In this document: in pieces, positions 4,932-44,239 of the stretch
How the letters are laid out: each line of letters starts with the position of its first letter
Numbering within the stretch: position 1 is the first letter of the stretch
NCBI GenBank assembly: GCA_965223905.1
Contig: CBDCXV010000010.1
Location: 832,001 to 896,000 of the forward strand
Reading direction: 5' to 3'
DNA: 64,000 nucleotides
From: Candidatus Latescibacterota bacterium
GTDB lineage: Bacteria > Latescibacterota > UBA2968 > UBA8231
The notes under the pieces: model-generated
Databases searched by the model: none
What the model was told of the DNA's origin: nothing
What the model saw: only the letters and a program-made list of their open reading frames with translations
Made by a program: the position numbers and the translations under genes

Positions 4932-5720
4932 TTAGCCGCCCGCGGCCGCAAGCGGCTGAATGCGAAACTTGACCACGCCCCAGCTGCTCCCTTCGACCGC
5001 AGTGGGGGTGGACTCGCCGGACTCGGTGGACTCCTCCCCCTCCGGCCCGGTCCCTGTTTCCGTCGACTCCGACTCCCCTGTTCCCCCCGTCGACAGCGTC
5101 ATCAGCCGCTCGGGAATGCTTCCGGGCGTTCCCAGCTCGACGCTGCCGTCGTCCCATCCGCTCGCTTCGGTCGCGGTTTCCCACGCCTGTTCAAGCGAGC
5201 CGTCGGTGTCGAACTCGACCCGCACCATCGCCGCCTTCTGCTTGTTGTCTCCCGCCAGGGGAGCGCCGCTGCCGTCATCCGCGGAGTCGACCAGGTTTCC
5301 GCCCGCCCCGGGGTCGCCGTCGTAGAGGCGCAGCTGCAGCTTGCTGTTGGGCAGCGCCACCGCGGTCGCCACGACGTCGGGATCGGCGCTGATCTGCGAG
5401 CGCGCAGCGCCGTAGTTGGCGATCAGGAACGCCTCCCCCGGGGCGATGCTGCCCTCGCTGAGCTGGAGCATCACCGTCTCCTCGCCGTCTTTCCCCGTTT
5501 GCGTGATGACCCAGCCGCTGAGATCCCGCGCCGAGGACCCGCGGTTGTAGAGCTCGATCCACTCGTCGGCGCTCGAGGACTCGCTTCCCATCCACATAAG
5601 CTCGCTGAACACCACGTCACCCGGTTCCGCCGCAGCGACCGGGGTGCTGAAGGGGGCCGCTCCCAGCAGGAAGGCCAAGAGCAGGCTGGTACACCTCAAA
5701 ATGGTTCGGGCAGGTTTCAT
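4932..5720 (-). CDS. Secreted lamin-tail-domain (LTD) protein with C-terminal TAVEGSSWGVVK tag
   Basis: Signal peptide ending AAA; VVFSELMWMG, DEWIELYN, DLSGW, GTPG motifs; start taken as ATG 5720. Confidence 0.85.
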   Translation of the reverse strand: MKPARTILRCTSLLLAFLLGAAPFSTPVAAAEPGDVVFSELMWMGSESSSADEWIELYNRGSSARDLSGWVITQTGKDGEETVMLQLSEGSIAPGEAFLIANYGAARSQISADPDVVATAVALPNSKLQLRLYDGDPGAGGNLVDSADDGSGAPLAGDNKQKAAMVRVEFDTDGSLEQAWETATEASGWDDGSVELGTPGSIPERLMTLSTGGTGESESTETGTGPEGEESTESGESTPTAVEGSSWGVVKFRIQPLAAAGG

Positions 5721-6038
5721 GTCGCAGTCTCCTTTTTGGTGTGAAGGTTTCCGATTCCCTGCGAATCGGCTGACTGCGACCTGCAATTCCTGTGCCGCTT
5801 GCGAAGGCATCTCCTGGAGCGGTCCCAAGGCCTTTTTTTACAGGAGGTTACGCACCAGATCCCCCTCCCGGGCTCGAGCGGCCTTGCGGCACCAGGCCCA
5901 CACAGGTGTCACCGGAACCACATATCCGGCGGGAATGTCCCGCAGCGACGGCGACCATTCCGGGCAGGCGCTGATGTCGCCTGCGGCTGCATTGACGTAC
6001 CCTTCGCCACGATCCCCGAAACCCGGAAAGGAGAGGTC

Positions 6039-6995
6039 GTGAAGATTCTCCTGCGCCAGTCCGATCTGTCGGACGAGTACCTGCGCTTCGCGGCCCAGAT
6101 CGGGGCCGACGGCATCGACATCCACAACGCCGAGAGCGTCCCCGGCTGGATGGAGCAGGGGTACCCGGATGCCGATGAGCTGAAAAGGATCAAGGAGCGG
6201 ATCGAAGGGGCCGGCCTGCGGCTCTACCGGCTCGCGCCCCCGGACGAGCCGTGCAACTTCATGCTCGGCCTTCCCGGCGGGGAGAAGGACATCGACGACC
6301 TGATCCGCACCATCGAGATCATGGGCCGGCTCCGCATCCCCTTCCTGTCGACCCCCTTCCACTTCGACCACCCGGGCCATCGCGGCGGCCAGCTGTTCGA
6401 GCACCGCGGCGGCTACAAAATGGGCGGCTTCAGCGCCGACAGGATGAACGCCAGTTTCGCCGCCGAGCCCTGGAACCCGCCGGTCTCCATCGAGGATCAC
6501 TGGCAGCGCTCCCTGGAGATGCTGCGGGCCCTGGTCCCGGCCGCGGAGAGCCACGACGTCAGGCTGATCACCCACCCCGGGGATCCGCCGCTGTCCAACT
6601 GCTACGTCTCCCCCCAGCGCTGGACCGACCTTATGGATCTGGTCCCCAGCCCGCACAACGGCCTGCTCTACTGCGTCGGCACCCGCTACGAGTCCGGGGT
6701 CGACATTCACGAGGACATCCGCCGCTACGGGCGCAAGGGGCAGATCTTCCACACCCACATCCGCAACGTCCGCGGCCAGATCCCCACTCACGGCGGCTAC
6801 CAGGAGGTGGCCATCGACGACGGCGACATGGATCTGCTTTCCGTGCTGCACACCCTGCGGGAAGTCGGCTTCGACGGCGGCCTCCAGCTCGACCACATGC
6901 CCAGCTTCGACGGCGACGACCGGCACCGGAGGATCGCCTGGGCGCACGCCGTCGGGTACGTGCAGGCGCTGCTCGCCGCCATGGGGCTCAGGTAA
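6039..6995 (+). CDS. Mannonate dehydratase-like (UxuA family)
   Basis: GTG start after GGAGAGG; HPGDPP, HTHIRNVRG, DDGDMD, DHMP motifs. Confidence 0.85.
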   Translation: MKILLRQSDLSDEYLRFAAQIGADGIDIHNAESVPGWMEQGYPDADELKRIKERIEGAGLRLYRLAPPDEPCNFMLGLPGGEKDIDDLIRTIEIMGRLRIPFLSTPFHFDHPGHRGGQLFEHRGGYKMGGFSADRMNASFAAEPWNPPVSIEDHWQRSLEMLRALVPAAESHDVRLITHPGDPPLSNCYVSPQRWTDLMDLVPSPHNGLLYCVGTRYESGVDIHEDIRRYGRKGQIFHTHIRNVRGQIPTHGGYQEVAIDDGDMDLLSVLHTLREVGFDGGLQLDHMPSFDGDDRHRRIAWAHAVGYVQALLAAMGLR

Positions 6996-7043
6996 ACCGC
7001 ACCTTAGCCGAGCCCTGATTTTTTTCTTGTGAAATCGCATGGC

Positions 7044-7072
7044 TTGACCCTTCTTATACAACATAGTAGTAT
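7044..7072 (+). promoter_or_regulatory. Sigma70-type promoter
   Basis: TTGACC-17 bp-TAGTAT upstream of AGGAG RBS (7125) and the 7139 start. Confidence 0.7.
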
Positions 7073-7138
7073 GAAGCACATCGCTGGAAAGCTGCGTCCG
7101 CAGCGTCACCTTCACCCTTTTCATAGGAGTTGATCGAG

Positions 7139-8053
7139 ATGAAAAGAATTGCGTTGATCGCGGCCCTGGCCGCGGTCGTGGCCATGGTAGGTAGCTCGTG
7201 GGGTGGAGATCCCACCTATACCTACGAGATCCCCCACATCCCAGATAGCATGGTGCCGGAGGTAGATGGCGATCTAAGCGATCCTGCCTGGACCAACTAC
7301 CCCATGGAGTATGCCATCGTCCACCCGGGTGGAGATATTCCCCTGACGAATGGACGAGGGATTGGAGCGGACGTCCCCGATGCCGCCGACTACTCCGCGA
7401 CGATCAAGTGGGGCTGGAACGATGGCACCAACAAGCTGTACATAGCCATCGACGAGTTCGACGACATCTTCTACGTCGACACGCCGGCTGAGTGGTGGAA
7501 TGATGATGTCTGGCAGATCCACATGGATGGCAAGCTCTGGAACGGCCCTTACGAGTACACAAACCAACTACCGGAAGAGGAGTGGGGGGCCCACGCGCAA
7601 CAGTGGGAGTTCACACAGGGCGAGCACTGGTGGGGTGCTGCGAACAACATCAATCTCGAAACTCCCAAGGGCAACCAGGAACCTGCCATGGAGCCCTGGG
7701 CCAAAGTCGCGTTCGGAAACACGCCCCCCCAGAACGGCGATACGAACGTGAATCTGATCTACGAGCTTTACATCACTACCTGGGAATACATCGACTCGAC
7801 GGACAACAGCAAATCCGTTCCATGGGACATGGAAGGCGGAAACGTCATGGGGTTGCTGCTGTCGCGTTATGAAGACGACGAAGGAGGAGCCACCCTGAAT
7901 GTAGAATGGCAGACTGGAGGCGCGTACCAAACGACAGATTCTTCGACCTTCAATGAGGTCGTCCTCCTCTCTCCCGGCGAAGTTGAATGGCCCGACTCGG
8001 GAACCGCGGTCGAGTCTTCCACCTGGGCTCGCATCAAAGCCTCCTTGTTCTAA
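7139..8053 (+). CDS. Secreted CBM9/DOMON-like protein with C-terminal TAVESSTWARIKASLF tag
   Basis: Signal peptide; PEVDGDLSD.W, WNDGTNKLYIAIDEFDD, YELYI motifs; Trp/Asp-rich. Confidence 0.8.
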   Translation: MKRIALIAALAAVVAMVGSSWGGDPTYTYEIPHIPDSMVPEVDGDLSDPAWTNYPMEYAIVHPGGDIPLTNGRGIGADVPDAADYSATIKWGWNDGTNKLYIAIDEFDDIFYVDTPAEWWNDDVWQIHMDGKLWNGPYEYTNQLPEEEWGAHAQQWEFTQGEHWWGAANNINLETPKGNQEPAMEPWAKVAFGNTPPQNGDTNVNLIYELYITTWEYIDSTDNSKSVPWDMEGGNVMGLLLSRYEDDEGGATLNVEWQTGGAYQTTDSSTFNEVVLLSPGEVEWPDSGTAVESSTWARIKASLF

Positions 8054-8068
8054 AGGTGGTCCTGCAGG

Positions 8069-8104
8069 AAAAACGGGGGAAAGTCGAGCTTTCCCCCGTT
8101 TTTT
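8069..8104 (+). terminator. Rho-independent terminator
   Basis: AAAAACGGGGGAAAG-TCGAG-CTTTCCCCCGTTTTTT. Confidence 0.85.
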
Positions 8105-8127
8105 CTTTGGTTCTTTTCTAGTCGAAG

Positions 8128-8907
8128 ATGCTATCTCTTTTTTGCTCTCGCCGGTTCTGGACCCGGATATCCGTAAGCGCCTGGCTGTTTTCGGTGCTCT
8201 CTCTGGGTATGCTTTCATGCGGCTATCGGTTCTGGGCCGGAAAACTGACCCCTGCGGACGAAGAGATGCAGGAGCCGGGGATGAGGGTGAACGACGACGG
8301 AACGGTAACCTTCATCAAGGAACGACTCGAGCTCGCCGTGCGGCCCCTCACAGTCGCCGAGTTGAACCGGCAGTTTCCCCAAAACTCCCAGGGCGGAACC
8401 GAATCGACCAATCCCTTCACCTTCGGGGACTGGAAAGATCCGAGGACGGGCGAGGTCCCGGATCGTTTTCTGGTTTTTTCTCTCAAGGTAAAGAACTACT
8501 CTCATCCCAAGATCCGGGTCGATCCGTCCAATGCCCACATCACCACCGATGTCGGCATGACCTATCTGCCCCTGGGGAAGCTGGATCTGGAGCGCTATTT
8601 CCGGACCTACGTTACCGGGTACGCCGGTGTGCCGTACTTGCGCTTCGAGGAACGCAAGGATACTGCGAGGGCGACCCTTTTTCCGGGCGATGTCGTCTTC
8701 AGCGGTCAGGAAGCCGAAGGGTACCTGGTTTTCCCCAACTTGCACCAAGAGGTCAAGACGGTAGTTCTCAACCTGAATGAGGTAGCTCTGCGTTTCAACT
8801 ACGCCAACGACCCAATTGAAACGATCGATGTGCAGTACAGATTCCAGCGGGAAACCGGCCGCCTCTACACGGACGGCAGGCTGGTGAAAAACAATCCGGG
8901 GTACTGA
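8128..8907 (+). CDS. Probable lipoprotein, hypothetical
   Basis: Hydrophobic segment ending MLSC (lipobox-like); beta-rich body. Confidence 0.75.
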   Translation: MLSLFCSRRFWTRISVSAWLFSVLSLGMLSCGYRFWAGKLTPADEEMQEPGMRVNDDGTVTFIKERLELAVRPLTVAELNRQFPQNSQGGTESTNPFTFGDWKDPRTGEVPDRFLVFSLKVKNYSHPKIRVDPSNAHITTDVGMTYLPLGKLDLERYFRTYVTGYAGVPYLRFEERKDTARATLFPGDVVFSGQEAEGYLVFPNLHQEVKTVVLNLNEVALRFNYANDPIETIDVQYRFQRETGRLYTDGRLVKNNPGY

Positions 8908-8946
8908 AGAACTGCAGGACTACAGGAACCGCAACCGGGGGCAGGA

Positions 8947-10818
8947 TTGCTGATGTACTCGTCTCCCCGCCGAGGATGGCGCGGCTGTTGCTGCGGGTTC
9001 TCGTGCTGGATATGGGGTTCGGTCGTTTTTCTCTCGGGATTCTCCGTGTCCGGGAGCGTTCAGCGGTGGACCTTCGGCGGTGCAGGCGCAAGCTGGCAGG
9101 ACGGGGGGATCATGGAAGCATTGGAGATAACCCCCGGGGCGACTCTGCAACCCGAGTATACCAGCCCGGTTGAGAACCTCGCCGCGACGGCCGCCGCACG
9201 CGGAGGCGGCATCGATACACCGATCCCCACCCTGAAAAGCACCTCGCTGCCGGGAAACCAGCTTTCCAACATGATAGACGGTAATCCCGACGTCGCCTTC
9301 AAGTCCGAACTGAGCAACAACCAGGGTGTGTTCCTGGTGCTGGACCTGGGCGCTTCGCTGGGGGTCAACCGGATCCTGTTCTACACGAGAGACCCCGCAA
9401 ACACGGAAGACTACCCTTTTCTGCAGGGATACAGGCTCTCCGTCAACGACGGCAGGCCGGAGACCCAGAGCCGGGCAGGACCGATCTGGACGGTGGTGGA
9501 CAGAAGGTCCCCCAACAGGTCTCCCCGGGTAGAGGTGGAGTTTCCGCTGCAATTCATCCGCTACATCAAGCTGGAATCCCTCGTTGTCTTCGACTGGGAG
9601 ATCGCGGAATTCGAGGTGTACGGCGAGGGGTTCGCGCCGAATGCGGTCTATACTTCCCAGGTGCTCGAGGTGCCCGGACAAGCCGGCCAACCTGGCGCGG
9701 CAAACTGGGGAAAATTGAGATGGTCCCACATCACCGATCCGGATGCCTCGATAGTCCTTCAGGTCAGGAGTGGTGAGACCGCTGATCCCAATCGGTACTT
9801 TCAGATCGAAGTGGACGACCTTACCCGGGCGCGCACCCTGGAGCCGATCACCAGGGAGGAATACGAGGAACTGGGGGAGACCGACGCCGTCATGGAGGCG
9901 GACCGGGACCACTGGAGCGACTGGTCCGAGCCTCTCCCGCCATCCGGAGAGGAGCAGATAACCGCTCCGGCCCCCCGGTCATACTTCCAGTTCAGAGCCT
10001 TCTTCCAAAGCCGCTCCCTCTCCGCCAAGGCCGAGTTGGGTTCTCTGTCCATCGAGTATTCGGTTCCGCCGCTGGCCCGGGAGATAACGGCTGCGATCTC
10101 TCCTCGCCAAACCCAGGCGGCGATCAGTACTCCGTTCACCTACACACTCGAGGCCGATATCGACCCGGACGCCGGGCACATCGGGTTCGACGCACTCGAG
10201 ATCGCCATGCCTGCCCGGCCCACCTTCGAGGAACTGAGGATCGACGGTCTTCCCATCGCCCTGGATCCCGACCGGGTCACGGCTGCGTCGGACCGGCTTG
10301 TTCTGCTGTTCCCCGAACACCGCGTCGACAGGGACGGAACCCTCCTCGAGGTGGACTTCGATTGCCCGGTATTCTCCTACGGAACTGCGTTCGACGGAAA
10401 GGTGTTCGATACGACGTCCGATGAACTGCCCCAGATCGTCGTGCCGGACGAGACCGTCGACACACGAGCTCTTTCCGTCGAAGTGGTTTTGAAGGAGTGG
10501 ATTCTTGCCTCGGTCCGGGTCCGCTCGAATCCCTTTACGCCCAACGGCGATGGAACCAATGACGCGGCCTTCATTTCCTACTCGATACTGAAAGTCTCGG
10601 AGCCTATTGACGTCTCCGTCCAGGTGTACGATCTGGCCGGTAGAGTGGTGAGGGATCTTTTCTCGGGAAGCGAAGCAAGCGGTGAACATCAGCACCTCTG
10701 GGACGGACGCAACTCCCAGGGAACCCTGGTACCGCCGGGATTCTATATTGGACGAGTCAAGGCGGATGCCTTGGCGATAACCGAACAGAGAAGCACGGGG
10801 ATAATGGTGGTCTATTGA
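8947..10818 (+). CDS. Secreted discoidin/F5-8-like protein with FlgD-Ig/CHU_C (T9SS type B-like) C-terminal domain; start uncertain
   Basis: MIDGNP, LVLDLG, IAEFEVYG; C-terminal NPFTPNGDGTND...VYDLAGRVVR...WDGRN...PGFY. Confidence 0.85.
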   Translation: MLMYSSPRRGWRGCCCGFSCWIWGSVVFLSGFSVSGSVQRWTFGGAGASWQDGGIMEALEITPGATLQPEYTSPVENLAATAAARGGGIDTPIPTLKSTSLPGNQLSNMIDGNPDVAFKSELSNNQGVFLVLDLGASLGVNRILFYTRDPANTEDYPFLQGYRLSVNDGRPETQSRAGPIWTVVDRRSPNRSPRVEVEFPLQFIRYIKLESLVVFDWEIAEFEVYGEGFAPNAVYTSQVLEVPGQAGQPGAANWGKLRWSHITDPDASIVLQVRSGETADPNRYFQIEVDDLTRARTLEPITREEYEELGETDAVMEADRDHWSDWSEPLPPSGEEQITAPAPRSYFQFRAFFQSRSLSAKAELGSLSIEYSVPPLAREITAAISPRQTQAAISTPFTYTLEADIDPDAGHIGFDALEIAMPARPTFEELRIDGLPIALDPDRVTAASDRLVLLFPEHRVDRDGTLLEVDFDCPVFSYGTAFDGKVFDTTSDELPQIVVPDETVDTRALSVEVVLKEWILASVRVRSNPFTPNGDGTNDAAFISYSILKVSEPIDVSVQVYDLAGRVVRDLFSGSEASGEHQHLWDGRNSQGTLVPPGFYIGRVKADALAITEQRSTGIMVVY

Positions 10819-13226
10819 AAACGATTGCGAACATTCTCGGTTCTCTGCTGCTCGGGTTCGTCCTCATCGCTCTCGACACCGCCGTGTCATCCGGAGCGGA
10901 ACTGGTTTTCGAAGCCGATAGGATCGGCTCTGAATGGCGGTCTCCCCCGGGCACCTTCGTCCTTTCCCAAGGGGAGATTCGTCCCGCCTACATCCGGGGC
11001 GAACGGGATTCTGTAAACGCCGCCGCCAACGCCGAAGGTTTCGTCGCCGAGAGGGACAGGGATGGCAATCCCACCCGGTTCGGGGGCATCTTCGTCCCCG
11101 ATTGGGTAACGGTTCTGCCATCCAATTTCGAAGAGCTGCCGGTTATCATGGACGGAGACCGCAGCACGGCCTGGGCTCCGTCAGGTGACGATCCCCTCAG
11201 CACGTGGTGGCTGCTGATAGATCTCGGGCGTGCGGTCCGGGCAACCAAGGTACGCCTCGTGTTCGCCGAAGACGGGCCACCCTTCGAGATGTTCGAACTC
11301 TACAAGTCGACCGGTCAGCAGGCCTTCACCAAGAGGTCGGGCGTGCTGGATTTCAGGACCATACACCGCTCGACCCGGCCAAACTTCGATCACGTCCTGT
11401 CCTACGAGGTGGAAGAGCAGCCGGTGCGCTATCTGTACCTGCAGGCCATGGAAAAGACAGAAGGCGCGAAAGTTGCCGAGCTGGAGGTGTTCACCCTGGG
11501 CGACAACATCGCCCTGGGCGTTCAGGACCGCGGTGGACTGGCGCGCAGCGTTGCCTCCCGGGGGGGGGGGTTGGCCGAGAACATCGAGGTCTGGGAGATG
11601 GTGGACGGAGATTACCTGACCTTCTTCAATCTCAGCACCCCCGCCTACAACAACTGGTGGCAGTGGGAGTCCAAGGGATGGTTCCACCTGGATCTTGGCA
11701 ACCTCTTCTGGGTAGACCTGGTGCGCATCGTGCAGCAGCACGAGCTCTACAGCTCCAGGTTTCACCCCCTGCAGAGCTACGTGCTCTACGCGTCGGACGC
11801 TTCCCCGGCGCCGCCTGGATCCGGAGGCATACTCGGGCCGTTCCTGTCTCCTTTGGTGGGAGACTTCGTTTGGTGGGAAGTCGGGAATCTTTCCAGGAAC
11901 CCGCCCGAAGGTGAGACCCAGCAGAGATTCCTGTTCGAGGAACGGCTTTCGCCGCAACCGGTCCGCCACATTTTTCTGAGCCATCGCAACCTCTTCGGCG
12001 GCAGCGGCATCGGAATGATCGCCAACATCGGAGAGTTTCAGGTGTACGGCCGGGGGTTCCTCCCGGAGATAGTGCTCACCTCGGGCTTCATAGACATGGG
12101 CGCAGTACGGAACATCACGGAAATCTCATGGGATGGCGACGTTCCTCCTGGCACCAGGATACAGTTCAGGAGCCGGACGGGGGAGGAATTCCGTTGGGAG
12201 GTCACCTACTGGAAGAAACTGGGGGCCAACATCAGGAACAAGGAAGTGACCAAGGAGGAATGGGAGGCATTCTCCGCCACCAGGAAAGGTGCCGTGGACA
12301 GCACGGTGGTCCTTGAGGGCTGGAGTCCCTGGAGTCAACCCTACCTCGCGCCCGGGGAGACCTTCGTCTCGCCGAGCCCGAGAAAGTTCGCTCAGCTCGA
12401 TGCCCGGCTCATCACCTCGGATCCCGACGCTCGAGCTTCGTTGCAGCGTGTGAGGCTGATTCACCGGGACCCGGTCGCCGCCGCCCTGGTCGGTGAGATC
12501 CATCCCAGGCGCGCCCTCCCGGGCGTGGAAGAAGTGTTCACCTACCATATCAAGCCGCAGATATCTGCCGGCAACCAGGAATTCGACGATATACTGATCC
12601 TGCCCCCTTCCTCGGCCACGCTCCTCGACGTATTGATAAGCGGAACTTCGGTGGGCGACGCGATAGAAGTGATGCCAGCAGGCGAAGACTCGCTGTGGAT
12701 TCGCCTGCCCTCGGCACTGGATCGCCAGGCCGCATCCAACGACCCCGATCTGGCGGTCGAGGTCGTGTTGGCGACCAGGGTGTTTGCGAACGGGACGCTG
12801 ATCGAGTCTTTCGCAGGCAACTCCGCCAGCCCCGGCTCCTGGCAGCGCGTGGACCCCAAAGACGGCAGGTTCGAGAACCTGACCGTCCTGCTGCCCTACA
12901 GTGAGGTAAGGGTGCTCGGGGATATCAGCATTGTTCCGTCCACGTTGACTCCCAATGGCGATGGGGTCAATGACGCCACCGCGATAACCTTCACCCTTTT
13001 CCAGATCGACCAGTCAAGTCCCGCGACCGTGACGATTTTCGACGTCGGCGGACGGACGATCAGAAACATGCGCCATCAGGGTGCCAGCGGCGTCAACCGA
13101 ATCGTCTGGGACGGCTCCGACGAATCGGGAGAGATCGCGCTTCCCGGTACGTATATATGTCGCGTCGACATCGACACCGACAGCGGCACCAGGACTGCCG
13201 TCCGAAGCATCGCCTTGGCCTACTGA
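10815..13226 (+). CDS. Secreted protein with two discoidin-like domains and a FlgD-Ig/CHU_C C-terminal domain
   Basis: Signal peptide; MDGD..LIDLG..AELEV and VDGD..HLDLG..GEFQVYG; C-terminal TPNGDGVND...WDGSD...PGTY. Confidence 0.87.
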   Translation: MKTIANILGSLLLGFVLIALDTAVSSGAELVFEADRIGSEWRSPPGTFVLSQGEIRPAYIRGERDSVNAAANAEGFVAERDRDGNPTRFGGIFVPDWVTVLPSNFEELPVIMDGDRSTAWAPSGDDPLSTWWLLIDLGRAVRATKVRLVFAEDGPPFEMFELYKSTGQQAFTKRSGVLDFRTIHRSTRPNFDHVLSYEVEEQPVRYLYLQAMEKTEGAKVAELEVFTLGDNIALGVQDRGGLARSVASRGGGLAENIEVWEMVDGDYLTFFNLSTPAYNNWWQWESKGWFHLDLGNLFWVDLVRIVQQHELYSSRFHPLQSYVLYASDASPAPPGSGGILGPFLSPLVGDFVWWEVGNLSRNPPEGETQQRFLFEERLSPQPVRHIFLSHRNLFGGSGIGMIANIGEFQVYGRGFLPEIVLTSGFIDMGAVRNITEISWDGDVPPGTRIQFRSRTGEEFRWEVTYWKKLGANIRNKEVTKEEWEAFSATRKGAVDSTVVLEGWSPWSQPYLAPGETFVSPSPRKFAQLDARLITSDPDARASLQRVRLIHRDPVAAALVGEIHPRRALPGVEEVFTYHIKPQISAGNQEFDDILILPPSSATLLDVLISGTSVGDAIEVMPAGEDSLWIRLPSALDRQAASNDPDLAVEVVLATRVFANGTLIESFAGNSASPGSWQRVDPKDGRFENLTVLLPYSEVRVLGDISIVPSTLTPNGDGVNDATAITFTLFQIDQSSPATVTIFDVGGRTIRNMRHQGASGVNRIVWDGSDESGEIALPGTYICRVDIDTDSGTRTAVRSIALAY
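11560..11570 (+). repeat. G11 homopolymer inside the CDS
   Basis: Eleven consecutive G (CGG GGG GGG GGG, encoding RGGG). Confidence 0.9.
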
Positions 13227-13280
13227 ATCGGGGCCGTCCGGATCGAACGTGGTCCCCTAATCGCGTCAGGGAGGGATGTT

Positions 13281-15830
13281 ATGAGGAAAACCGCCCGGGT
13301 ATTTCTGACTGGGTTTGCCTTTCTTTCACAGTCCGCCGCATTCCGCGCGGAGGCCCAGCAGCCGGAGACTTACTTTGCCGACGTTCCCATCCGGCTCGAG
13401 ACCCTCGACCCTGTTGTAAAGAAGGATTATCGCCTGCAGGATCTCTACTATCAGTATCAGTACGAGCCGTGGCGGTTCACCAACTACGCCCGGGACCACT
13501 ACCAGAGATACACGAGTGTCGACCTGGAGGGCGAGACGTGGTACGATGTCTTCGGCACGTACATCACCAGGGGTTTCGCGCTCTACTCCTGGAGCCAGAC
13601 GCAACCCCAGGCATTCGGCAGCGACGTTTTCAAACGGCACCAGTACGGAAGCTGGTTCAACAACCTCGTGGTCGCGAGTGACCGCAAGGGCCAATACCAC
13701 ATGGCCCTCACGGTCGGGGACGAGATTCGCACCACCCTCACCCCGCTGACCTTTTCGAAGCCTTCCTTCAGCGGCTTGCAGTGGGATTTCCTGTCGGACA
13801 AATACGAGCTCACCGCCCTGGCATCCCGCGTCAGCAGCCCCGGGTTCGCCGCGCAGTTTCGCGAACAGAAGGAAGGCCAGACCCTGACCTCCCTGGTCAA
13901 CCTCTTCGGCGGCCGCGGCACGGTACAGCTGGGCGACTTCGTCAAGGCCGGAGCCACCTACGTCAATGCGCAGGTAAACCGCACCGACCAGGCCTTTTAC
14001 GACAAAGGTCTGATCGAGGGGCAGTTGAGCTCTGATCAGAACCGCGACCTGATCAGGCGGATCACCATTCGCATCAGCGACCATTCACCCGGGGACGGCA
14101 AGGGAGGGGGCAGGCTGTTCTCGGAGAGGGTGTATTTGACGAGAGAGGACGAACCGCGGGCGCGCGAGGACGTCCGTCCGCTGGTCCAGGGTGGACTCAG
14201 GCGGGGCGGGGCCCTGGCCGCCGACGGCGGCGAGACCATCGAGCTGACCTACACCCTGCCGGAGCCGGAGAATATCAGGGAAATCGAGTTCGAGCTGGTG
14301 GTTTCCAACGACTACGTGATCGAGGTCACTTCCAATCTGCAGGAGCCCTTCTTCCTTCCGGTGGCTCAGGCGCGGGGGAACGTAACCGACGGATCCAACC
14401 AGACGGTGGTGCGCTTCGACTACGGTCTGCCCACCGCCCACGAGGTGGCAGGTCTGACTCTCGAGGTGAAAGACCTTCTGGGCATCCGGATGACCGGCGA
14501 GTACGACATCAGCCGCAGACGCAGGAAATCGCCCAATCCGAACTTTGCGTTTCACGGGAGCTCATTGATCAAGTCGAAGGCGTGGTACGGGGACCTCAGC
14601 TGGAATCGCTATCCCTATTTCGCCAGGGGAGAGGCGTTTTCCATCGAGCCCGAGTACCAGACAAGGATGTTCATCACCAACGAAATCGGCGTAATCAACT
14701 ACGACAACCCATCCCAGCACCTCTTCGAGTTCGTCGACGACAACGACGACGCCGACCGCACTCCCGACTGGAACCGAAGGTTCTCGGAACGCGACAACGA
14801 CGGCATCTTCCCCGGCTGGGACGAGAACAACGATTTCCGGCCGGACATCAATCGGAACACGAACAAGATACCGGACTACGAAGAGCCGTTTCTTCGGTAT
14901 TCGGTCGACCCCCCCGAATTCCTCTTCGGCGTCGACATGAACAACAACACCATCATCGATCGCTTCGAAGACGACGAGATGCCCGACTACCCCTACAAGC
15001 CGGATCACCACGGGTACAACGCCTACATCGGGACTGAAATCGTGCCCGACGTTCGCCTCCTCGTCGGCAGATCGCATGAAGAGCTCTGGTCGACCGACGA
15101 ACGCGCACGGGCGACCTACGCCCTGTTGACCGCCGAGAGGGTATTCCCCGGTCTTGGAAAGCTGAGAGTGTCCGAGCGAACGAAATTGGCGAAAGACGAC
15201 CTTCGGGACAACGTGCTTCAGTGGGTGCAGAGGAGGGGCACGTTCGGCCAGGACCGCGTCCTGCAGAAAGATCCCCTCGTGGCCCAGGACACCTGGATCA
15301 ATACAACCTTCCTGGGCTTCGACTACACCCGGATTTCCAATTTCAACAGTATCAACATCGTCAAGTACGAGTTCTACGATCAAAGGGACCCTGCCGAGGA
15401 CATGGCGGACCTGTCCCGGTTTCTGGGAATCATCAACAAGGCGGATTACACCTTGTCATTCAAAGGCCTGGAAATCCGACCCAAGATCAAGAGCATGTAC
15501 CGGTACCGGACACCCTTCATGAAGAACGAAAAGGATGTCAACGAGCTCACCGAGTTCCTGTCCATCGAGACCGACATTCCGGTGCTGAGCCGGTCCCGGC
15601 TGCAATTGGGCGTGGAGCAGGTCTTTTTCAACGATTGGACCGACGAGCAAAATTTCAACTCCCGAACCCTCGCCATGCAGTTCTCCAACTTCACCGCCTA
15701 TCTGGGATATGCAGTGACGACCAATGTCGGATTCTTGGTGGAGAACAGAAACTTCAGGGGTGCCTTCGAGGGCCGCCCCAGCGAGCGATTCACGAACGCA
15801 TTCATCAACATTTTCGCGGGTCTGGAATAG
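13281..15830 (+). CDS. Large exported protein, probable outer-membrane beta-barrel with acidic Ca-binding-like loop
   Basis: Signal peptide ending AEA; alternating beta-strand patterns; DDNDDAD/DNDG/DENND/DMNNN motifs; ends FINIFAGLE. Confidence 0.75.
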   Translation: MRKTARVFLTGFAFLSQSAAFRAEAQQPETYFADVPIRLETLDPVVKKDYRLQDLYYQYQYEPWRFTNYARDHYQRYTSVDLEGETWYDVFGTYITRGFALYSWSQTQPQAFGSDVFKRHQYGSWFNNLVVASDRKGQYHMALTVGDEIRTTLTPLTFSKPSFSGLQWDFLSDKYELTALASRVSSPGFAAQFREQKEGQTLTSLVNLFGGRGTVQLGDFVKAGATYVNAQVNRTDQAFYDKGLIEGQLSSDQNRDLIRRITIRISDHSPGDGKGGGRLFSERVYLTREDEPRAREDVRPLVQGGLRRGGALAADGGETIELTYTLPEPENIREIEFELVVSNDYVIEVTSNLQEPFFLPVAQARGNVTDGSNQTVVRFDYGLPTAHEVAGLTLEVKDLLGIRMTGEYDISRRRRKSPNPNFAFHGSSLIKSKAWYGDLSWNRYPYFARGEAFSIEPEYQTRMFITNEIGVINYDNPSQHLFEFVDDNDDADRTPDWNRRFSERDNDGIFPGWDENNDFRPDINRNTNKIPDYEEPFLRYSVDPPEFLFGVDMNNNTIIDRFEDDEMPDYPYKPDHHGYNAYIGTEIVPDVRLLVGRSHEELWSTDERARATYALLTAERVFPGLGKLRVSERTKLAKDDLRDNVLQWVQRRGTFGQDRVLQKDPLVAQDTWINTTFLGFDYTRISNFNSINIVKYEFYDQRDPAEDMADLSRFLGIINKADYTLSFKGLEIRPKIKSMYRYRTPFMKNEKDVNELTEFLSIETDIPVLSRSRLQLGVEQVFFNDWTDEQNFNSRTLAMQFSNFTAYLGYAVTTNVGFLVENRNFRGAFEGRPSERFTNAFINIFAGLE

Positions 15831-15834
15831 GGGC

Positions 15835-17835
15835 GTGACCAGCGGTGGCAGAAAACGAACCCTGGCCCTGTTTCTGAGCGCCTTCGTCTCCGCATCTGCG
15901 AGCGGGGAGCAATGGGTCGTAGGCAACCAGCAACACCCCTGGGAGGAATGGGGCGGTGAAATGGCTCAGAGCCTGAGAAAGGGAGGAAAGGAACTCCAGG
16001 ACGAATGGGTCGATTGGGTCGGATTGGGGTTCCAGCAGGCAGGTCAGGAAGCGATTGTCGCCAGGATCGACGCGACCACGGATCCAGGCTGGCTGCAGCC
16101 GGTCCGGATAGATCCATCGATCAATCTGTCCTTCGGGCTCGCGCAACGCTCTCTCCGGGCGAAACCCATCTCCGACCGAGGCCACTTCGGGGAAGCTGCC
16201 CGCACCCTGCCCGGCCCGATCCCCGCCCCTCTGAATGCCATCGATGGCGATGCCGGAACTTTCATCTACAACAGGTCCGGGGTGGAGTTCAAAAACCACC
16301 AGACACTGTATTTCGATCTGGCCTGGCCCTTTCCGGTCAACCGCGTTCGCTTCTATCCCCGAACCGGATTCGAGCTCTTCTATATCCCCGCCTATACTTT
16401 CGTGATCAGCGAGGGGGATCCCGAAGATTATGTGCCGCTAAAAAGGGATCCGACCGGATACGACCTCTGGGATCAGGGCGTCAGGACATGGTCGACCGTC
16501 GCCGAGGTACCGATCAACACGGAAAGCGTTGTGGACCTGCACTTCCCCAGGCAATACGTGCGCTACCTCTCTCTCCAGGACACGCTCACCTCCGAAGACG
16601 CGAAGACGCGCTGGGAGATCGCGGAGTTCGAAGTATACGGGGAGGGCTACCTGCCGGGCTTCACCTACACCTCTGCAATACTCCCCTTTGAGAATGCGGC
16701 CAACTGGGGCGGACTGCACTGGCATGCCGAGGTCGACCCGGGAGCTTCCTTGAGCCTCCGGACACGAACCGGGCAGACTCCCAACCCCTACCGGTATTAC
16801 ATCAACACGGGCATAGGGCCGACAGGGCGGCAGGAAGTCACCCGGGAGGAATATCGCGCCACCGCGGACGACTTCAACCGGAAAGCGCTTGCAGGTCTGG
16901 TGACCGAGGATACCGACAACTGGAGTTTCTGGTCCCTGCCCTACACCGAAAGCGGTCAGACGATCGTGTCACCGGCGCCAGCGAGGTTCTTCCAGTTCGA
17001 GCTCTCCGTCACATCCACGCCCGATGCCCGGGCACGCGTCGATTCCGTGGTGATCGAGTTCTCCAGTCCTCCCGTGGCACAGGAGTTGGTGGGAGAGCTG
17101 GGGTACGGAGAAGTTCAGCCCGGCCGCTGGGAGCAGTTCCGCTACGCCATTCTGGCGCGCTTCGGGCCTGCGGATACGGGGTTCGACGCCGTTCGGATCG
17201 TCACGCCCGAGGAGGTGGACGAAGCCTCGATCCGCAACTTGGTGGTGGACGGCACGGCTGCGTCACCGGACTCCCTGCATCTGGCGGCCGACGGGTTTAC
17301 CCTCTTCCTGCCCGAGCACCGCGGTCCATCCGGCGGGGTCGACAGCACCCTTGTCGAGATCTCGTTCGCCACGCGCCTGTACGTCCACGGGACCAACCTG
17401 TCAGGCTCCGTCTTCGACAGCAGGACGCCGGAGGCGCTGGCTCAGGGCATTCTACCCGGTGACGCCACCGCGGCGCTGGACATCGACAACCTGCAAGTGG
17501 AGTGGGAACTGGGAGGGGCCCTGCTGGGTTCGGCGGTCGCAGCGCCCAATCCGTTTACGCCCAACGGGGACGGCGTCAACGATCGAGTGCAGATCGACTA
17601 CGGCCTGTTCCAGGTGGACCATGCAATACCCGTGACATTCACGGTCTATGACCTGAGCGGACGCGCGGTGTATGCGGTGACCCGAAGCGAGCAAAGCGGG
17701 CCCGGGTCCATACGCTGGGAGGGAACCGACGGGGCGGGCGCTCTCGTGTCGCCAGGTCTCTATGTGTGGCAGATCAAGGCCGATACGGGGGCAGGCGAAT
17801 TCGTGGAAAGCGGATTTGTTTCAGTTGCGTATTGA
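15835..17835 (+). CDS. Third discoidin-like protein with FlgD-Ig/CHU_C C-terminal domain
   Basis: GTG at 15835, signal peptide; AIDGD, FDLA, WEIAEFEVYGEG, NWGGLHW, PNPFTPNGDGVND, PGLY. Confidence 0.87.
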   Translation: MTSGGRKRTLALFLSAFVSASASGEQWVVGNQQHPWEEWGGEMAQSLRKGGKELQDEWVDWVGLGFQQAGQEAIVARIDATTDPGWLQPVRIDPSINLSFGLAQRSLRAKPISDRGHFGEAARTLPGPIPAPLNAIDGDAGTFIYNRSGVEFKNHQTLYFDLAWPFPVNRVRFYPRTGFELFYIPAYTFVISEGDPEDYVPLKRDPTGYDLWDQGVRTWSTVAEVPINTESVVDLHFPRQYVRYLSLQDTLTSEDAKTRWEIAEFEVYGEGYLPGFTYTSAILPFENAANWGGLHWHAEVDPGASLSLRTRTGQTPNPYRYYINTGIGPTGRQEVTREEYRATADDFNRKALAGLVTEDTDNWSFWSLPYTESGQTIVSPAPARFFQFELSVTSTPDARARVDSVVIEFSSPPVAQELVGELGYGEVQPGRWEQFRYAILARFGPADTGFDAVRIVTPEEVDEASIRNLVVDGTAASPDSLHLAADGFTLFLPEHRGPSGGVDSTLVEISFATRLYVHGTNLSGSVFDSRTPEALAQGILPGDATAALDIDNLQVEWELGGALLGSAVAAPNPFTPNGDGVNDRVQIDYGLFQVDHAIPVTFTVYDLSGRAVYAVTRSEQSGPGSIRWEGTDGAGALVSPGLYVWQIKADTGAGEFVESGFVSVAY

Positions 17836-17850
17836 CCCAGGAGCAGTGTC

Positions 17851-18243
17851 ATGAAAAGAATGCTCACCGTTCTCGCAGCGTTGGGTTTCGCGGCATCCCA
17901 TCCCGGCTGCGGAGCCACCGGGACCGGCATCGGCACCGCGAAGACCGGGATCCTTTTCATCAACGAATCGAACAGGGATGTCGATGTCACCATCGAAGGG
18001 TGTGACGAGTTCTTCCTGCCGGCGAGGCGAGGCAACACCTCGAGTCGGTACACAGCACGCTGCGAGTCGACGGAGGACGTGGTGTGGACGGTGCGCGCCC
18101 ATGGCGAGTGGGTGAAAAGGCCGGGGACTCCTCCCGTCATGGGCTCGCACGAGCACTTCGCCACCGCCAGGTCAGGCGACACCGTCTACGTCAGGAATTC
18201 CCACGCCATATTCGGTCTGCACGTGATCAGCGACGAGGAGTGA
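17851..18243 (+). CDS. Small probable lipoprotein, hypothetical
   Basis: AGGAG RBS, signal peptide with PGC. Confidence 0.65.
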   Translation: MKRMLTVLAALGFAASHPGCGATGTGIGTAKTGILFINESNRDVDVTIEGCDEFFLPARRGNTSSRYTARCESTEDVVWTVRAHGEWVKRPGTPPVMGSHEHFATARSGDTVYVRNSHAIFGLHVISDEE

Positions 18244-18261
18244 CCGCCTTGAACCACCCCC

Positions 18262-19023
18262 CTACACCAGTTCGTACTCCATGTAGCACTCCGGCGTGTT
18301 CAAATCGCCGTCGCGCGGCGGCTGCCGCGTCCAGTTCGCCTGCCGCACGCTTGCCCGCTGATCGATGAGCTGACGTCGCAGCAGGACCATCCGCAACAGG
18401 TCCCCTTTCTTCAGGGAGGCCGCCCCCTCCTCGGCGAGCCACTTCAACCCCGCCCAGGGCATCGCGATCTCGGCGTACCAGCCCCGGTCGATGTCGCTGC
18501 GGTCATCGAGCGTGCCCTCCACCTGCACCGCGGCGCGCAGTCCCGGAATCTCCCAGGGTGAGAAACACCAGCGCATGCCGCGCCGGTGGTGGGGGCCGCC
18601 GTCGCCTCCGAGCACCGATGGCCGCTGCCGCCCGAGGTCGAACTCCGGCACGTCGTAGCGACCGCCCCGGCGATAGGCATCCTTGAAGATGAAAAAGGCC
18701 GCCGACGTGGCCCCGCGGGGGTTGACGGCGACCCGGCAATGGGCGTCGGAACCCGCAAGGAGGATTTCACAGCAGTTTTCCTGCCATCCCAAAGGGCCGG
18801 GCCGTTCCCCGGTGCTGCAGACATCCCGGTCTTCGAGCCAGAAAGCGGCGTAGAGGTTGTCTGCGTCCCACATCAACGCCGCCCGGGTGTCGAACAGGGT
18901 CTGCCTTCGTCCCGTGGCGATATCGCCGAAGCGTGGAGAACGCTCCACCCCGGACCACGCCTCCTTTTCGAGCCGGCCGTCGATGTCGATCGGTCCCGGG
19001 GCCCGCTGAATGCGCTCACTCAT
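18262..19023 (-). CDS. CBM9-like domain protein
   Basis: IDIDGRLEKEAW, WDADNLY, GWYAEIAMPW; paralog of the adjacent gene; start ATG 19023. Confidence 0.8.
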   Translation of the reverse strand: MSERIQRAPGPIDIDGRLEKEAWSGVERSPRFGDIATGRRQTLFDTRAALMWDADNLYAAFWLEDRDVCSTGERPGPLGWQENCCEILLAGSDAHCRVAVNPRGATSAAFFIFKDAYRRGGRYDVPEFDLGRQRPSVLGGDGGPHHRRGMRWCFSPWEIPGLRAAVQVEGTLDDRSDIDRGWYAEIAMPWAGLKWLAEEGAASLKKGDLLRMVLLRRQLIDQRASVRQANWTRQPPRDGDLNTPECYMEYELV

Positions 19024-19858
19024 GGGGACCTCCTCCCGGGCTGCCGACGACGGCTTCGGAGAAGTGTATGAAGGTGAAGCGATCCGGTATGTGCGAGTCG
19101 TAAATCTGGTGGCTGTTCCATGCCCAGCCCGGGCAGTTGCGCACGCCGCCCTCATCGATCCACTGGAAGCGGGAGAAATCCATGCGCCACACGTCCCCCT
19201 CCCGGGCGGGAAGCGAGCGGCCGTCAGCCAGGTGCTTCAGCCCCTGCCACGGGAAGGCGATCTCCGCGGTCCAGCCCCGGTCGACGTCGCTGTCGTCGTT
19301 GATGGTGCCGTCGACGTGCACCCCCCACTTCAGCCCCGGCATATCCCAGTCGCGGAAGATCCATCGCCGCCCGCGAGGGTGGGCGTGGCCGCTCCCCTCG
19401 CCACCCAGGGTATCGACCGTCGGGTTGGCGACCAGGTCGAACTCGGGCAGCTCGGCGTACCCGGCTTCGATGTAGCGGTCCTGCCAGATATACAAACGCT
19501 CCATGATCGTTCCGAGGGCATTGAGCTCGAACTCGAAGTAGGCGTCTTCGCCGGCGATGAAGACCTCGACGTCGTTCTCCAGGCAGATCATCGAGTCGCG
19601 CTCGGTAAAGGTTGCGCGCACGTCCGGTTCTTCGAGCCAGAAGCCGACGTAGAGGTAGTCGTCGTCCCACAGAACCGCGGCCCGGGTGTCGTAGAGCGCC
19701 GGCCGCCCCGGCTCTTCCAGATCCTCGAAGCGCGGGGACCGCGGCGCCAGGTGCCAGGACGCTTCGTCGAGACGGCCGTCAACTGCAATCGGACCTGCCG
19801 CCCGCTGACTGGTGTAGTGTTTCAGCCCCTCCTCGGAATATCCATACTTGCTCGCCAA
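19016..19858 (-). CDS. CBM9-like domain protein
   Basis: AAGGAGG RBS then TTG; VDGRLDEASW, WDDDYLYV, ENDVEVFI, FEFELNALG, GWTAEIAFPW. Confidence 0.85.
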   Translation of the reverse strand: MASKYGYSEEGLKHYTSQRAAGPIAVDGRLDEASWHLAPRSPRFEDLEEPGRPALYDTRAAVLWDDDYLYVGFWLEEPDVRATFTERDSMICLENDVEVFIAGEDAYFEFELNALGTIMERLYIWQDRYIEAGYAELPEFDLVANPTVDTLGGEGSGHAHPRGRRWIFRDWDMPGLKWGVHVDGTINDDSDVDRGWTAEIAFPWQGLKHLADGRSLPAREGDVWRMDFSRFQWIDEGGVRNCPGWAWNSHQIYDSHIPDRFTFIHFSEAVVGSPGGGPHE

Positions 19859-20245
19859 CTCATCCTCCTTTGGTAATTGGTGCCGCACCTTTTTCCCGGT
19901 TTGACCGCGGTCGGGACCGCTCCTTTGGTGCCCAGGTGGCGCTTGAAGTGACCTGGCAAATATAAAAAAGCTTCCTGGAGGCCCGGACCAGTTTACACCG
20001 CATCTGTCGCGGCCAATTTCTTTGAGAAAATCCATTCTTGATCTTCGAGCTCACGGCATGCCCGTTGGCCATCGTCACGGCGCCGGTTAAATTGACCGCG
20101 GCCAGGCTGACCAGGGGTTACCCCATCGGAGAAAGCACAAAGGCGCTCTTCAGCGGGGGTTCGGCCGGTAATCAGCTACCGCAACACCGTCCCGAAATCA
20201 AACCTTCTCCGGATCTTCACCAGCGCAATCAGGACCAACATCGCC

Positions 20246-21229
20246 ATGTTCATCCAGGAACAGCTCGGGCACGGGAGCCTGAACGACGACAATCTCGCCT
20301 TCTTCAAGGCGATCGGCGTCGACTACCTGACGATCAACCCGCTCCACTTCGCCGCCGACGACAAGGGGGAGCTGTCGACGTTCGACGAGATGGCCGGCTT
20401 CCTCAAGTCGGCGCGCGACCTGGCGGAGAAACACGGCCTGAAGCTGATGAACGTCGCCCTCGAGGGGCCCGACGACATCACCCTCGCCCGCCCCGGCCGC
20501 GACGCGAAGATCGAGCAGTGGAAGGACGCCCTGCGGGCGATGGCCGCGGCCGGCGTCCGCACCCTGGGCTACAACTTCAAGCCTATCGGCAACTTCCGCA
20601 CCGCCTCGGCCATCGGCCGCGGCGGCGCCCACTACAGCACCTTCGACTACGACGAGTGGCAGCGGACCGAGCCGGAATGGGAACCGCGGTCTCGCGGCAA
20701 GCAGATCGACGAAGCGGGCATGTGGGAGAACATCGCCTGGTTCCTCGAGCGCATTCTTCCGGTCGCCGAGGAGTGCGGGGTGCGCATGGCCCTGCACCCG
20801 GACGACCCTCCGATTCCCGCCCCGATGGGGGGCGCCGCGCGCATCGTCTCCACCCTGGAGCAGTACGAGCGCATCTTCGCGCTGGCGCCGAGCGACAGCA
20901 ACGCCATGCTCTTCTGCCAGGGCTGCGTCACCGAGATGGGGGTCGACGTGCTCGCTTCCATCCGCCGCATCGGCGCCCTCGGCAAGATCGCCTACGTCCA
21001 TTTCCGCAACGTGCGCGGCTCGCGCCGCCACTTCGAAGAGGTCTTCATCGACGAGGGGGACGTCGACATGTACCGCGCCATGCAGACCTACAGGGAATCC
21101 GGTTTCCAAGGCCCCTTCATGATGGACCACACCCCCTCCATCCCCGGCGACCGCGGGGGCCGAGAGGGCCACGCCCTGGCCACCGGCTTCATGCGCGCCA
21201 TGATCCAGGCGGTGTACGGCCGCGGCTGA
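20246..21229 (+). CDS. Mannonate dehydratase-like (UxuA family)
   Basis: MALHPDDPP, FCQGC, HFRNVRG, DEGDVD, DHTP. Confidence 0.9.
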   Translation: MFIQEQLGHGSLNDDNLAFFKAIGVDYLTINPLHFAADDKGELSTFDEMAGFLKSARDLAEKHGLKLMNVALEGPDDITLARPGRDAKIEQWKDALRAMAAAGVRTLGYNFKPIGNFRTASAIGRGGAHYSTFDYDEWQRTEPEWEPRSRGKQIDEAGMWENIAWFLERILPVAEECGVRMALHPDDPPIPAPMGGAARIVSTLEQYERIFALAPSDSNAMLFCQGCVTEMGVDVLASIRRIGALGKIAYVHFRNVRGSRRHFEEVFIDEGDVDMYRAMQTYRESGFQGPFMMDHTPSIPGDRGGREGHALATGFMRAMIQAVYGRG

Positions 21230-21272
21230 AGGCCGCCGCCTGCCCGCCTCCATCCCGACCGGAGGACCCGTC

Positions 21273-38646: not shown

Positions 38647-38708
38647 GGGGCCGGGAATAGGTCGGAGCGGTTGCGAAGGGTGAGTCTCGTGGCAGGGAGA
38701 GAAACCGC

Positions 38709-39995: not shown

Positions 39996-40042
39996 GTGGC
40001 CAGAGCATATTCAGTTGAGAGTTTGTCTTCGAGAGGCACGAC

Positions 40043-44233: not shown

Positions 44234-44239
44234 CGCGCC

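Follow-up and report, generated by a model that had tools for sequence, protein, structure and literature searches.

A recurrent gene cassette of Latescibacterota pairs an undescribed family of predicted outer-membrane barrels with three paralogous proteins and a CBM9-like protein

The window studied here is the whole 64-kb stretch of contig CBDCXV010000010.1 from a Candidatus Latescibacterota bacterium, and all positions given for it refer to that stretch. Seven neighbouring genes in it, g1 to g7, all on the + strand, include one copy of a cassette that recurs in many genomes. The conserved unit of this cassette consists of a large protein predicted to be an outer-membrane beta-barrel of an undescribed family (B, here g5), three paralogous proteins that have a core and a C-terminal domain in common (P, here g3, g4 and g6) and a CBM9-like protein with a tagged C-terminus (T, here g1), usually together with a SurA-like lipoprotein. 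That the cassette exists, what it consists of and that it is new are firmly established. The features of the locus in the window are the following.

7044..7072, + strand: sigma-70-like promoter match (TTGACC, 17 nt, TAGTAT; 9 of 12 matches), upstream of g1
7139..8053, + strand: g1 (T), predicted secreted CBM9-like protein with a tagged C-terminus, 304 amino acids (aa)
8066..8106, + strand: 19-bp stem-loop followed by a T run, terminator-like or attenuator-like, directly 3' of g1
8128..8907, + strand: g2 (L), predicted lipoprotein of an unnamed family, 259 aa
8947..10818, + strand: g3, short P paralog, 623 aa, start at TTG 8947 or ATG 8953
10815..13226, + strand: g4, long P paralog that has an additional discoidin-like domain at its N-terminus, 803 aa
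13281..15830, + strand: g5 (B), predicted outer-membrane beta-barrel of about 26 strands, 849 aa
15835..17835, + strand: g6, second short P paralog, about 666 aa
17851..18243, + strand: g7, small secreted protein or possible lipoprotein, 130 aa, lineage-specific

The seven open reading frames (ORFs) were confirmed at these places and have the codon-position GC bias typical of genes. Their spacing is tight, with an overlap of 4 nt between g3 and g4, as an earlier reading made from the sequence alone had described. The start of g6 is most likely GTG 15835, 5 nt past the g5 TAG, rather than ATG 15724, because a normal signal peptide results and because ATG 15724 overlaps g5 by 107 nt. The promoter upstream of g1 is a consensus match only, four such matches being found against 2.5 expected in shuffled sequences. 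The sequence-only reading took all seven products to be exported. Hydrophobic N-termini bear this out for g1, g2, g4, g5 and g6 and also for g3, whose N-terminus is odd and Cys-rich yet hydrophobic, but the 'HPGC' motif of g7 differs from the canonical lipobox. Pfam and NCBIfam contain no match for g1, g2, g5 or g7, and a scan of positions 6500-18800 against Rfam gave no match.

The B family is large. At least 918 relatives of g5 at E<=1e-3 were found among the candidates scored, typically 44-50% identical over their full length. Precomputed Pfam domains are absent from all 120 relatives listed, and every name given among them is 'hypothetical'. An exhaustive search with a profile of B gives 1029 clusters (at 50% identity) at E<=1e-3, a number that falls to 780 at 1e-10 and to 357 at 1e-30. 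A g5 relative is encoded at 608 loci in GTDB genomes, and the locus analyses reported here cover the best 80 of these, taken as 22 kb each. The titles of 64 of the 80 name Latescibacter*; the other 16 come from Gemmatimonad-type metagenome-assembled genomes (MAGs), Handelsmanbacteria, Palauibacter, Planctomycetota, a Thermoplasmata MAG and an 'uncultured bacterium'. Up to five of the 80 loci come from a single chromosome, which is a lower bound. One locus, L001, is an ortholog of the window locus with 61-76% identity for all seven genes. The recurrence within and across genomes that the sequence-only reading had put forward as a check is therefore seen, in many genomes and with up to five copies per chromosome.

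The composition of the cassette was determined by searching every stop-to-stop ORF in the 80 loci for relatives of the window proteins, with iterated hidden Markov models (HMMs) and clustering of the unassigned ORFs. Forty-nine loci are complete, with at least 7 kb on each side of B. P-type proteins are present in all 49: three in 44 loci, four in three loci, two in one and five in one. T is found in 48 of the 49 and a SurA-like lipoprotein in 45. Less constant members are a protein with DUF6785 and DUF6784 domains (28 of 49), L (23 of 49), FG-GAP/ASPIC lipoproteins (19 of 49) and a tandem pair of barrels (5 of 49). P is missing from six loci that are short or truncated. The unit of seven genes first proposed was thus too wide: B, three P proteins and T, usually with the SurA-like protein, are what is conserved, while g2 occurs in less than half of the complete loci and g7 has a relative in just one of the 80 loci, the ortholog L001, and is rejected as a conserved member. 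Between paralogous copies of the cassette B is the best conserved protein (42-48% identity), P being about 30% and T 19-30% identical. Two tandem barrel genes, 38-40% identical to g5, are present in L056, L059, L063, L065, L074 and L077 (about 9.8-15.3 kb).

The AlphaFold2 model of g5, built from 31 sequences, has a predicted local distance difference test score (pLDDT) of 71.4 and a predicted template modelling score of 0.69. In it about 26 long antiparallel strands form a large beta-barrel, as had been suggested for this 849-aa product, with a beta-sandwich inserted at approximately residues 235-374 and an acidic, D/N-rich segment of low confidence at approximately 485-570. Conservation within the B family is highest in the acidic segment, residues 485-565 holding 28 of the 108 invariant columns. 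Foldseek matches to the model are large outer-membrane barrels only, namely SlpA (7zgx, E 4.8e-10), MtrB (6r2q_B), LptD, FimD/PapC and TonB-dependent receptors. This comparison supports a big barrel and singles out no particular family.

At the sequence level g5 matches no family in Pfam at E<=10 and none in NCBIfam at E<=0.01, and its isolated segments likewise match none. The profile of the B family has no match among PDB sequences at E<=1. Measured against Pfam (2025 copy), NCBIfam (2026) and the PDB sequences, the proposal of a new barrel family stands. The absence of a recognisable SusC/TonB or PorP motif, also noted before, is borne out for g5: Pfam and NCBIfam give neither the Plug nor the TonB_dep_Rec domain that would mark a TonB-dependent transporter or SusC, and no match to PF11751, TIGR03519 or the PorV family, which would mark a PorP/SprF homologue, an assignment that was rejected for B. 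A barrel that turned out not to be one, a match to a known transporter or a lack of synteny elsewhere had been named as findings that would speak against the sequence-only reading; for g5 and the cassette none of the three was observed. The acidic segment contains one DxNxNxxxDxxE loop and two partial loops and could be read as Ca2+-binding-like. An assignment to the EF-hand, dockerin or TSP3 families was rejected, the isolated segment having no Pfam match at E<=10.

The three P proteins are clearly related. The g3 and g6 proteins are 33% identical (E 7.5e-77), g3 aligns with g4 at E 1.5e-34, and a common core together with the PNGDGxND C-terminal domain aligns across all three, in agreement with the sequence-only reading. 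Pfam CHU_C is above its cut-off of 27 bits in each of them (27.8 bits, 31.4 in g4 and 37.7 in g6), in line with the C-terminal domain that had been proposed; this domain also scores for FlgD_ig (PF13860, gathering cut-off 27), above the cut-off in g3 (40) and g4 (28.4) and below it in g6 (25.6). The discoidin-like domains claimed for the paralogs are partly upheld. In Pfam, F5_F8_type_C (cut-off 28.2) stays below threshold in g4 (24.1 bits) and g6 (20 bits) and is missing from g3, but the N-terminal domain of the g3 model has a discoidin/CBM32-like fold. This model (37 sequences, pLDDT 90.1) is an all-beta rod in which two beta-sandwich domains lie between a discoidin head and the C-terminal domain, and no catalytic domain is seen in it. 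Foldseek matches it to PorU (6za2, E 3.2e-9) and to galactose-oxidase N-terminal domains, and its N-terminal domain superposes on the CBM32 chitosan-binding module 4zy9/4zxe with a template modelling (TM) score of 0.81-0.82, normalised by the target.

A FastTree phylogeny of 194 P sequences, comprising the three window proteins and the ORFs of at least 520 aa, separates the two types. The long type, to which g4 belongs, forms a clade with support 1.0 that contains 66 sequences from 65 loci, never two per locus. In 56 of 68 loci the short type (g3 and g6) has two or more members, and it divides into sub-clades with one member per locus. Since the long clade and each of the short sub-clades are single per locus, each cassette contains one long P protein and two short ones that differ from each other.

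The T protein is CBM9-like. No match to CBM9_1 (PF06452, cut-off 23.4) is found in g1 itself; 15 of 70 members of its family match this domain at E<=0.01 (best E 2.9e-6), the best PDB match of the family profile is the CBM9 of xylanase 1i82 (E 0.0034), and the Atlas clusters nearest to g1 carry CBM9_1 with a score of 0.96. A C-terminal tag, TAVE..[ST]WG.IK..F, is present on 64 of 72 ORFs of the g1 family, and T ends in an alternating hydrophobic motif. The tag has no match in NCBIfam. The tag, in the wider form TAVE..[ST]WG.[IV]K, occurs on unrelated beta-propeller (WD40/PD40) ORFs (L066:21432-22529, L071:5452-5826 and L071:5830-6783), and a variant of it ends a Lamin-tail-domain (LTD) protein in the window (4932-5837, - strand). 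Because unrelated proteins also carry it, the tag looks like an undescribed general sorting-type tag. The window contains further members of the g1 family: a tagged fragment at its end (63384-63812, - strand) and an untagged paralog (25742-26818, + strand; HMM E 1.3e-55). An untagged CBM9-like protein with a weak CBM9_1 match (E 3.2e-4) lies directly downstream of the cassette on the opposite strand (18262-19236, - strand).

The hairpin that follows g1 (8066-8106) has a folding energy of -31.8 kcal/mol and a z-score of -3.72, and none of 200 shuffled sequences folds as well. Stems of at least 9 bp within 90 nt downstream of a gene were then surveyed across the loci. Among 70 T genes, 69% are followed by such a hairpin, some of them in the middle of a cassette; the corresponding figures are 7% for 201 P genes, 6% for 81 B genes and 22% for 32 L genes. 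As the hairpin follows the T genes, T is probably produced in excess over the other products and would be an abundant ligand-binding subunit.

In g2 the lipobox Cys31 and 30 other columns are invariant in 26 aligned sequences. The L family has no match in Pfam, NCBIfam or the PDB, where its profile gives chance-level hits only (E>=0.083); the Atlas neighbours of g2 are unnamed 'Lipoprotein' clusters, with DUF4352 as a mere lead at a score of 0.78. The SurA-like lipoprotein consists of SurA_N and two peptidyl-prolyl isomerase (PPIase) domains. Neither the window nor L001 encodes a SurA-like, DUF6785 or FG-GAP protein. An FKBP-type peptidyl-prolyl isomerase is encoded at 21204-21719 (+ strand), 3 kb downstream of the SurA-less cassette. 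The DUF6785+DUF6784 protein, present in 34 of the 80 loci, has approximately ten transmembrane segments and matches PF20581 at 3.5e-123 (for example L072:1450-3414). It has no match in the PDB or NCBIfam, and no literature on DUF6785 was found. A distant relation to the oligopeptide transporter (OPT) type of permease was considered and is not demonstrated (BLASTP E 1.1, hhalign probability 4%).

Signs of a type IX secretion system (T9SS) were collected from the 64-kb window and the 22-kb loci. The PNGDGxND motif within 110 residues of the C-terminus occurs 142 times in the 80 loci, in P ORFs only. A WD40 beta-propeller protein in the window (31644-33722, + strand) scores 32.6 bits with TIGR04183, the T9SS type A model, against a cut-off of 23, and an LVIVD protein in L028 scores 41.1 bits with the type A model. 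The type A domain on the window protein is an indirect sign of a type IX-like route in this organism. Type B cargo is known to bind PorP-like barrels, in the pairs PorP-PG1035 of P. gingivalis and SprF-SprB of F. johnsoniae (PMC9143113). A barrel of the PorV/PorP family adjoins B and L in two loci, L008 (3654-4598) and L015 (13677-14555), and NCBI lists its relatives in Latescibacteria MAGs as PorP/SprF. The L008 protein scores 26.1 bits with PF11751, above the cut-off of 22.3, and 84.9 with PorV_fam, below the cut-off of 90. An OPT oligopeptide transporter (L008:4777-6708) follows B, L and this gene. The sequence-only reading held that type-B cargo typically needs a co-encoded barrel of the PorP/SprF type; two loci do have a true PorV/PorP-family gene beside B, and as it adjoins the barrel there, B need not replace PorP.

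Contact between barrel and cargo was modelled by folding residues 85-849 of B with the last 233 residues of g3, using our own alignments, so that the reference counts given below hold only approximately. Three runs gave an interface score (ipSAE) of 0.54, 0.00 and 0.48 (median 0.48), the best of three controls scoring 0.00. At least 10% of the contacts are common to the runs, and the partner has a pLDDT of 78 or more. Of 157 solved complexes 116 reach the mark used for contact, as do 2 of 215 mismatched pairs; in the range of ipSAE up to 0.60 it is reached by 18 of the 157 solved complexes and by both of the passing mismatches. Modelling of barrel and C-terminal domain, as the sequence-only reading had proposed, therefore lends weak support to a contact between B and P, from two runs of the three, and is a nudge rather than a proof.

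From the flanks of the cassette, representatives of all 28 recurrent clusters (at least four loci) and of 116 of the 143 rarer clusters were scanned, with 27 mostly short ORFs set aside. Genes for transport and regulation include parts of ABC sugar importers, an OPT transporter and GntR and ROK regulators. Degradative functions are represented by glycoside hydrolases GH127, GH130 and GH106, lyases PL4 and PL11 and two sulfatases. Further flank genes encode a BNR protein, AXE1, S9, S15 and M20 peptidases, GGT and many dehydratases, oxidoreductases and dioxygenases. In the window three UxuA-like genes (5745-6995, 20111-21229 and 49835-50974, + strand), two of which bracket the cassette, stand beside five GFO/IDH/MocA ORFs, one of them a fragment, and MR_MLE, PhyH and TauD genes. 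This density of UxuA-like and GFO/IDH/MocA genes is unusual.

We tentatively favour, with a confidence slightly short of even, an explanation in which the cassette encodes a modular outer-membrane complex that mounts type-B-like T9SS cargo on a new barrel family and captures polymers in the manner of a polysaccharide utilisation locus (PUL). The core would be g5, an outer-membrane beta-barrel of about 26 strands. The g3, g4 and g6 proteins would be non-enzymatic rods, each with a discoidin/CBM32-like head, spacers resembling immunoglobulin (Ig) or fibronectin type III (FN3) domains and a type-B-like C-terminal domain. They would exit the periplasm by a type IX-like route and be held at the surface, docked on B via an uncleaved C-terminal part, as type B cargo is on PorP/SprF-like barrels in Bacteroidota. 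The g1 protein, with its own C-terminal tag and probably overproduced, may serve as the abundant ligand-binding subunit, and g2 may be an accessory lipoprotein. At the cell surface the complex would bind glycans or other polymers, fragments of which would probably pass through B. Such a device would resemble a PUL or utilisome that works without a TonB-dependent transporter, and paralogous cassettes could give different specificities. The data show the folds, the novelty of the families, the recurrence and constant make-up of the cassette, the hairpin and the restriction of the C-terminal domain to P; surface location, docking on B, the type of ligand and transport are inferred. For glycan capture in particular we infer from the discoidin/CBM32-like and CBM9-like folds and from the mixed catabolic neighbours, for which there is no background control.

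The SusC/SusD loci and 'utilisome' complexes of Bacteroidota are polysaccharide-utilisation systems. The cassette resembles them in having many diverged copies per genome, a barrel together with non-enzymatic binders that carry CBM-like heads on Ig-like stalks, and variable neighbours that include importers, regulators and degradative enzymes. It differs from them in that Pfam and NCBIfam detect no TonB-dependent receptor, plug or SusD-like protein in it, in that its binders use C-terminal sorting domains rather than lipid anchors, and in that no glycoside hydrolase is constant. A bolder version of the proposal, that the cassette is an unrecognised class of outer-membrane machine, in which a 26-strand barrel with a conserved, acidic and possibly Ca2+-binding extracellular docking segment assembles a fixed set of lectin-headed P proteins (a single long one and a pair of short ones) and abundant T and imports polymers free of TonB, we consider rather unlikely.

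Several observations weigh against a capture and uptake complex of this kind. The g5 model is only moderately confident, with 168 residues below 50 that include the N-terminal strands and the acidic segment, and its Foldseek TM-scores are low (<=0.39). Neither a TonB box nor a plug is found in g5, nothing points to an energy source for uptake, and no transport-related motif was found in B. The P proteins score below the cut-off with the T9SS models: 17.8, 22 and 17.7 bits against 35 with TIGR04131 (type B) and up to 20.5 bits against 23 with the type A model. One of the three contact runs scored 0.00. The recurrent flank clusters contain no glycoside hydrolase, and no enzyme of this kind is a constant member. 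The association with catabolic neighbours may be non-specific, as it was judged without a genomic background and the rest of the window is equally rich in such genes. The near-universal SurA-like gene is equally compatible with a secretion or assembly device.

The complex may instead serve display or adhesion only, with B as a membrane anchor of the PorP/SprF kind for lectin-like P and T adhesins that attach to particles, host matrix or other cells, nothing crossing the barrel. This we regard as unlikely. In its favour, P alone carries the C-terminal domain, which is type-B-like, and the modelled contact between B and P has weak support (median 0.48 against 0.00 for the best control). The P proteins also resemble adhesins in bearing lectin-type heads on stalks that are Ig-like, ankyrin and WD40 repeat proteins are encoded in the window too, and the recurrent flanks are free of glycoside hydrolases. 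The cassette is moreover like the T9SS type B and PorP/SprF systems in having CHU_C on all three cargo proteins, cargo genes beside an outer-membrane barrel gene, type A-like domains on other proteins of the same organisms and a weak in-silico contact of barrel and cargo. PorP/SprF anchors have about 300 aa, as does the family member in L008, whereas the best-conserved protein B, with 849 aa, about 26 strands and none of the PF11751, TIGR03519 or PorV-family signatures, is large for a pure anchor. Unlike PorP/SprF, it is accompanied by three cargo proteins and a CBM9-like protein per barrel, it is found in Latescibacterota rather than Bacteroidota, and two loci carry an additional PorV/PorP-family gene. 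At least five diverged copies per genome, beside importers and catabolic enzymes, are a better fit for nutrient specificity than for adhesion.

A device similar to the chaperone-usher systems, with B as the usher pore, the SurA-like protein as chaperone, T as the major subunit of a fibre or layer and P as minor or tip components, appears improbable. Hairpins are known to follow major-subunit genes, and here one lies directly 3' of the T gene, a first gene whose overexpression it suggests. Further likenesses are a chaperone-type gene in most loci (45 of 49), the fixed stoichiometry of the minor, lectin-headed proteins, a large barrel with a beta-sandwich inserted between its strands, the T C-terminus with its alternating hydrophobic motif, and FimD/PapC among the Foldseek matches (E 4e-6 to 1e-4). 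This structural likeness is generic, however: FimD and PapC match no better than SlpA, MtrB, LptD and TonB-dependent barrels, with TM <=0.36. The g5 protein has no usher domains in Pfam and lacks the N- and C-terminal periplasmic domains of ushers, the model ending in barrel strands. The chaperone is SurA/PPIase-like, not PapD-like, and is missing from the window and L001; the subunits are not pilin-like; the T tag on unrelated proteins argues for a sorting tag, not a polymerisation strand; and the T9SS-type C-terminal domains of P suggest another export route.

It is very improbable that B is a distant relative of Deinococcus SlpA that acts as an abundant porin or envelope tether, with neighbours that are linked to it only loosely. 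Structurally, the g5 model comes closest to SlpA/SDBC entries (7zgx at 4.8e-10; 8ae1, 8agd), and 3 of 17 distant B relatives scanned show SlpA_C below threshold (19.8-21.7 bits, E 8e-5 to 3e-4). In g5 itself SlpA_C (PF21620, cut-off 35) is not matched even when hits up to E<=10 are admitted, and no PDB sequence matches the B profile at E<=1. Superposition on SlpA yields TM-scores of 0.18-0.24, and neither an S-layer homology (SLH) nor a coiled-coil part is present. Several diverged copies per genome, each with fixed partners, are unlike a general structural porin. LptD-LptE and MtrB-MtrA (8h1r, 5iv9, 6r2q), 26-strand barrels that enclose a partner, are also among the top Foldseek matches and have a similar size, and a lipoprotein (g2) is co-encoded in about half of the cassettes. 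Unlike these systems the cassette has neither the N-terminal jelly-roll of LptD nor cytochrome partners, and no sequence relation to either barrel is found.

Other features of the window lie apart from the cassette. An ankyrin-repeat protein (38661-39995, + strand; Ank_2 4e-97) is followed by a RelA_SpoT-domain protein (40019-41323, + strand), and the G+C content of this stretch is 0.54-0.61, against 0.65-0.70 elsewhere. Genes of mobile-element and defence type are also present: a transposase of the IS4/IS5 family is encoded at 30849-31643 (+ strand), GmrSD_N with an AAA_15/DUF3696 ATPase at 41612-45475 (- strand) and an AbiEi/AbiEii pair at 53144-54891 (+ strand).

Latescibacterota are widespread and uncultured. 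In the literature on the outer membrane, polysaccharides, T9SS and symbiosis of Latescibacteria, supplements not covered, we found no description of the cassette, and the parts consulted of two papers on Latescibacteria genomes (PMC4454575, PMC12993501) contain no mention of such a system. One genomic analysis of these bacteria assumes that their substrates pass the outer membrane by way of 'non-specific porins' (PMC4454575). At least five protein families of the cassette are unnamed in the Pfam and NCBIfam copies used: B, L, the tagged T subfamily, the P core and the C-terminal tag. In addition, the DUF6785/DUF6784 family gains a genomic context. With about 1000 clusters of B at 50% identity, several copies per genome and fixed subunits, the cassette is a strong candidate for the main interface of these organisms with external polymers. 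If the favoured explanation is true, it would answer how bacteria of the Fibrobacterota-Chlorobiota-Bacteroidota (FCB) group that lack SusCD capture their substrates, and what anchors type-B-like T9SS cargo outside Bacteroidota. If polymer import free of TonB is true as well, the cassette would do in Latescibacterota, with unrelated parts, what the utilisome does in Bacteroidota, and it would introduce a new family of anchors for type-B-like T9SS cargo.

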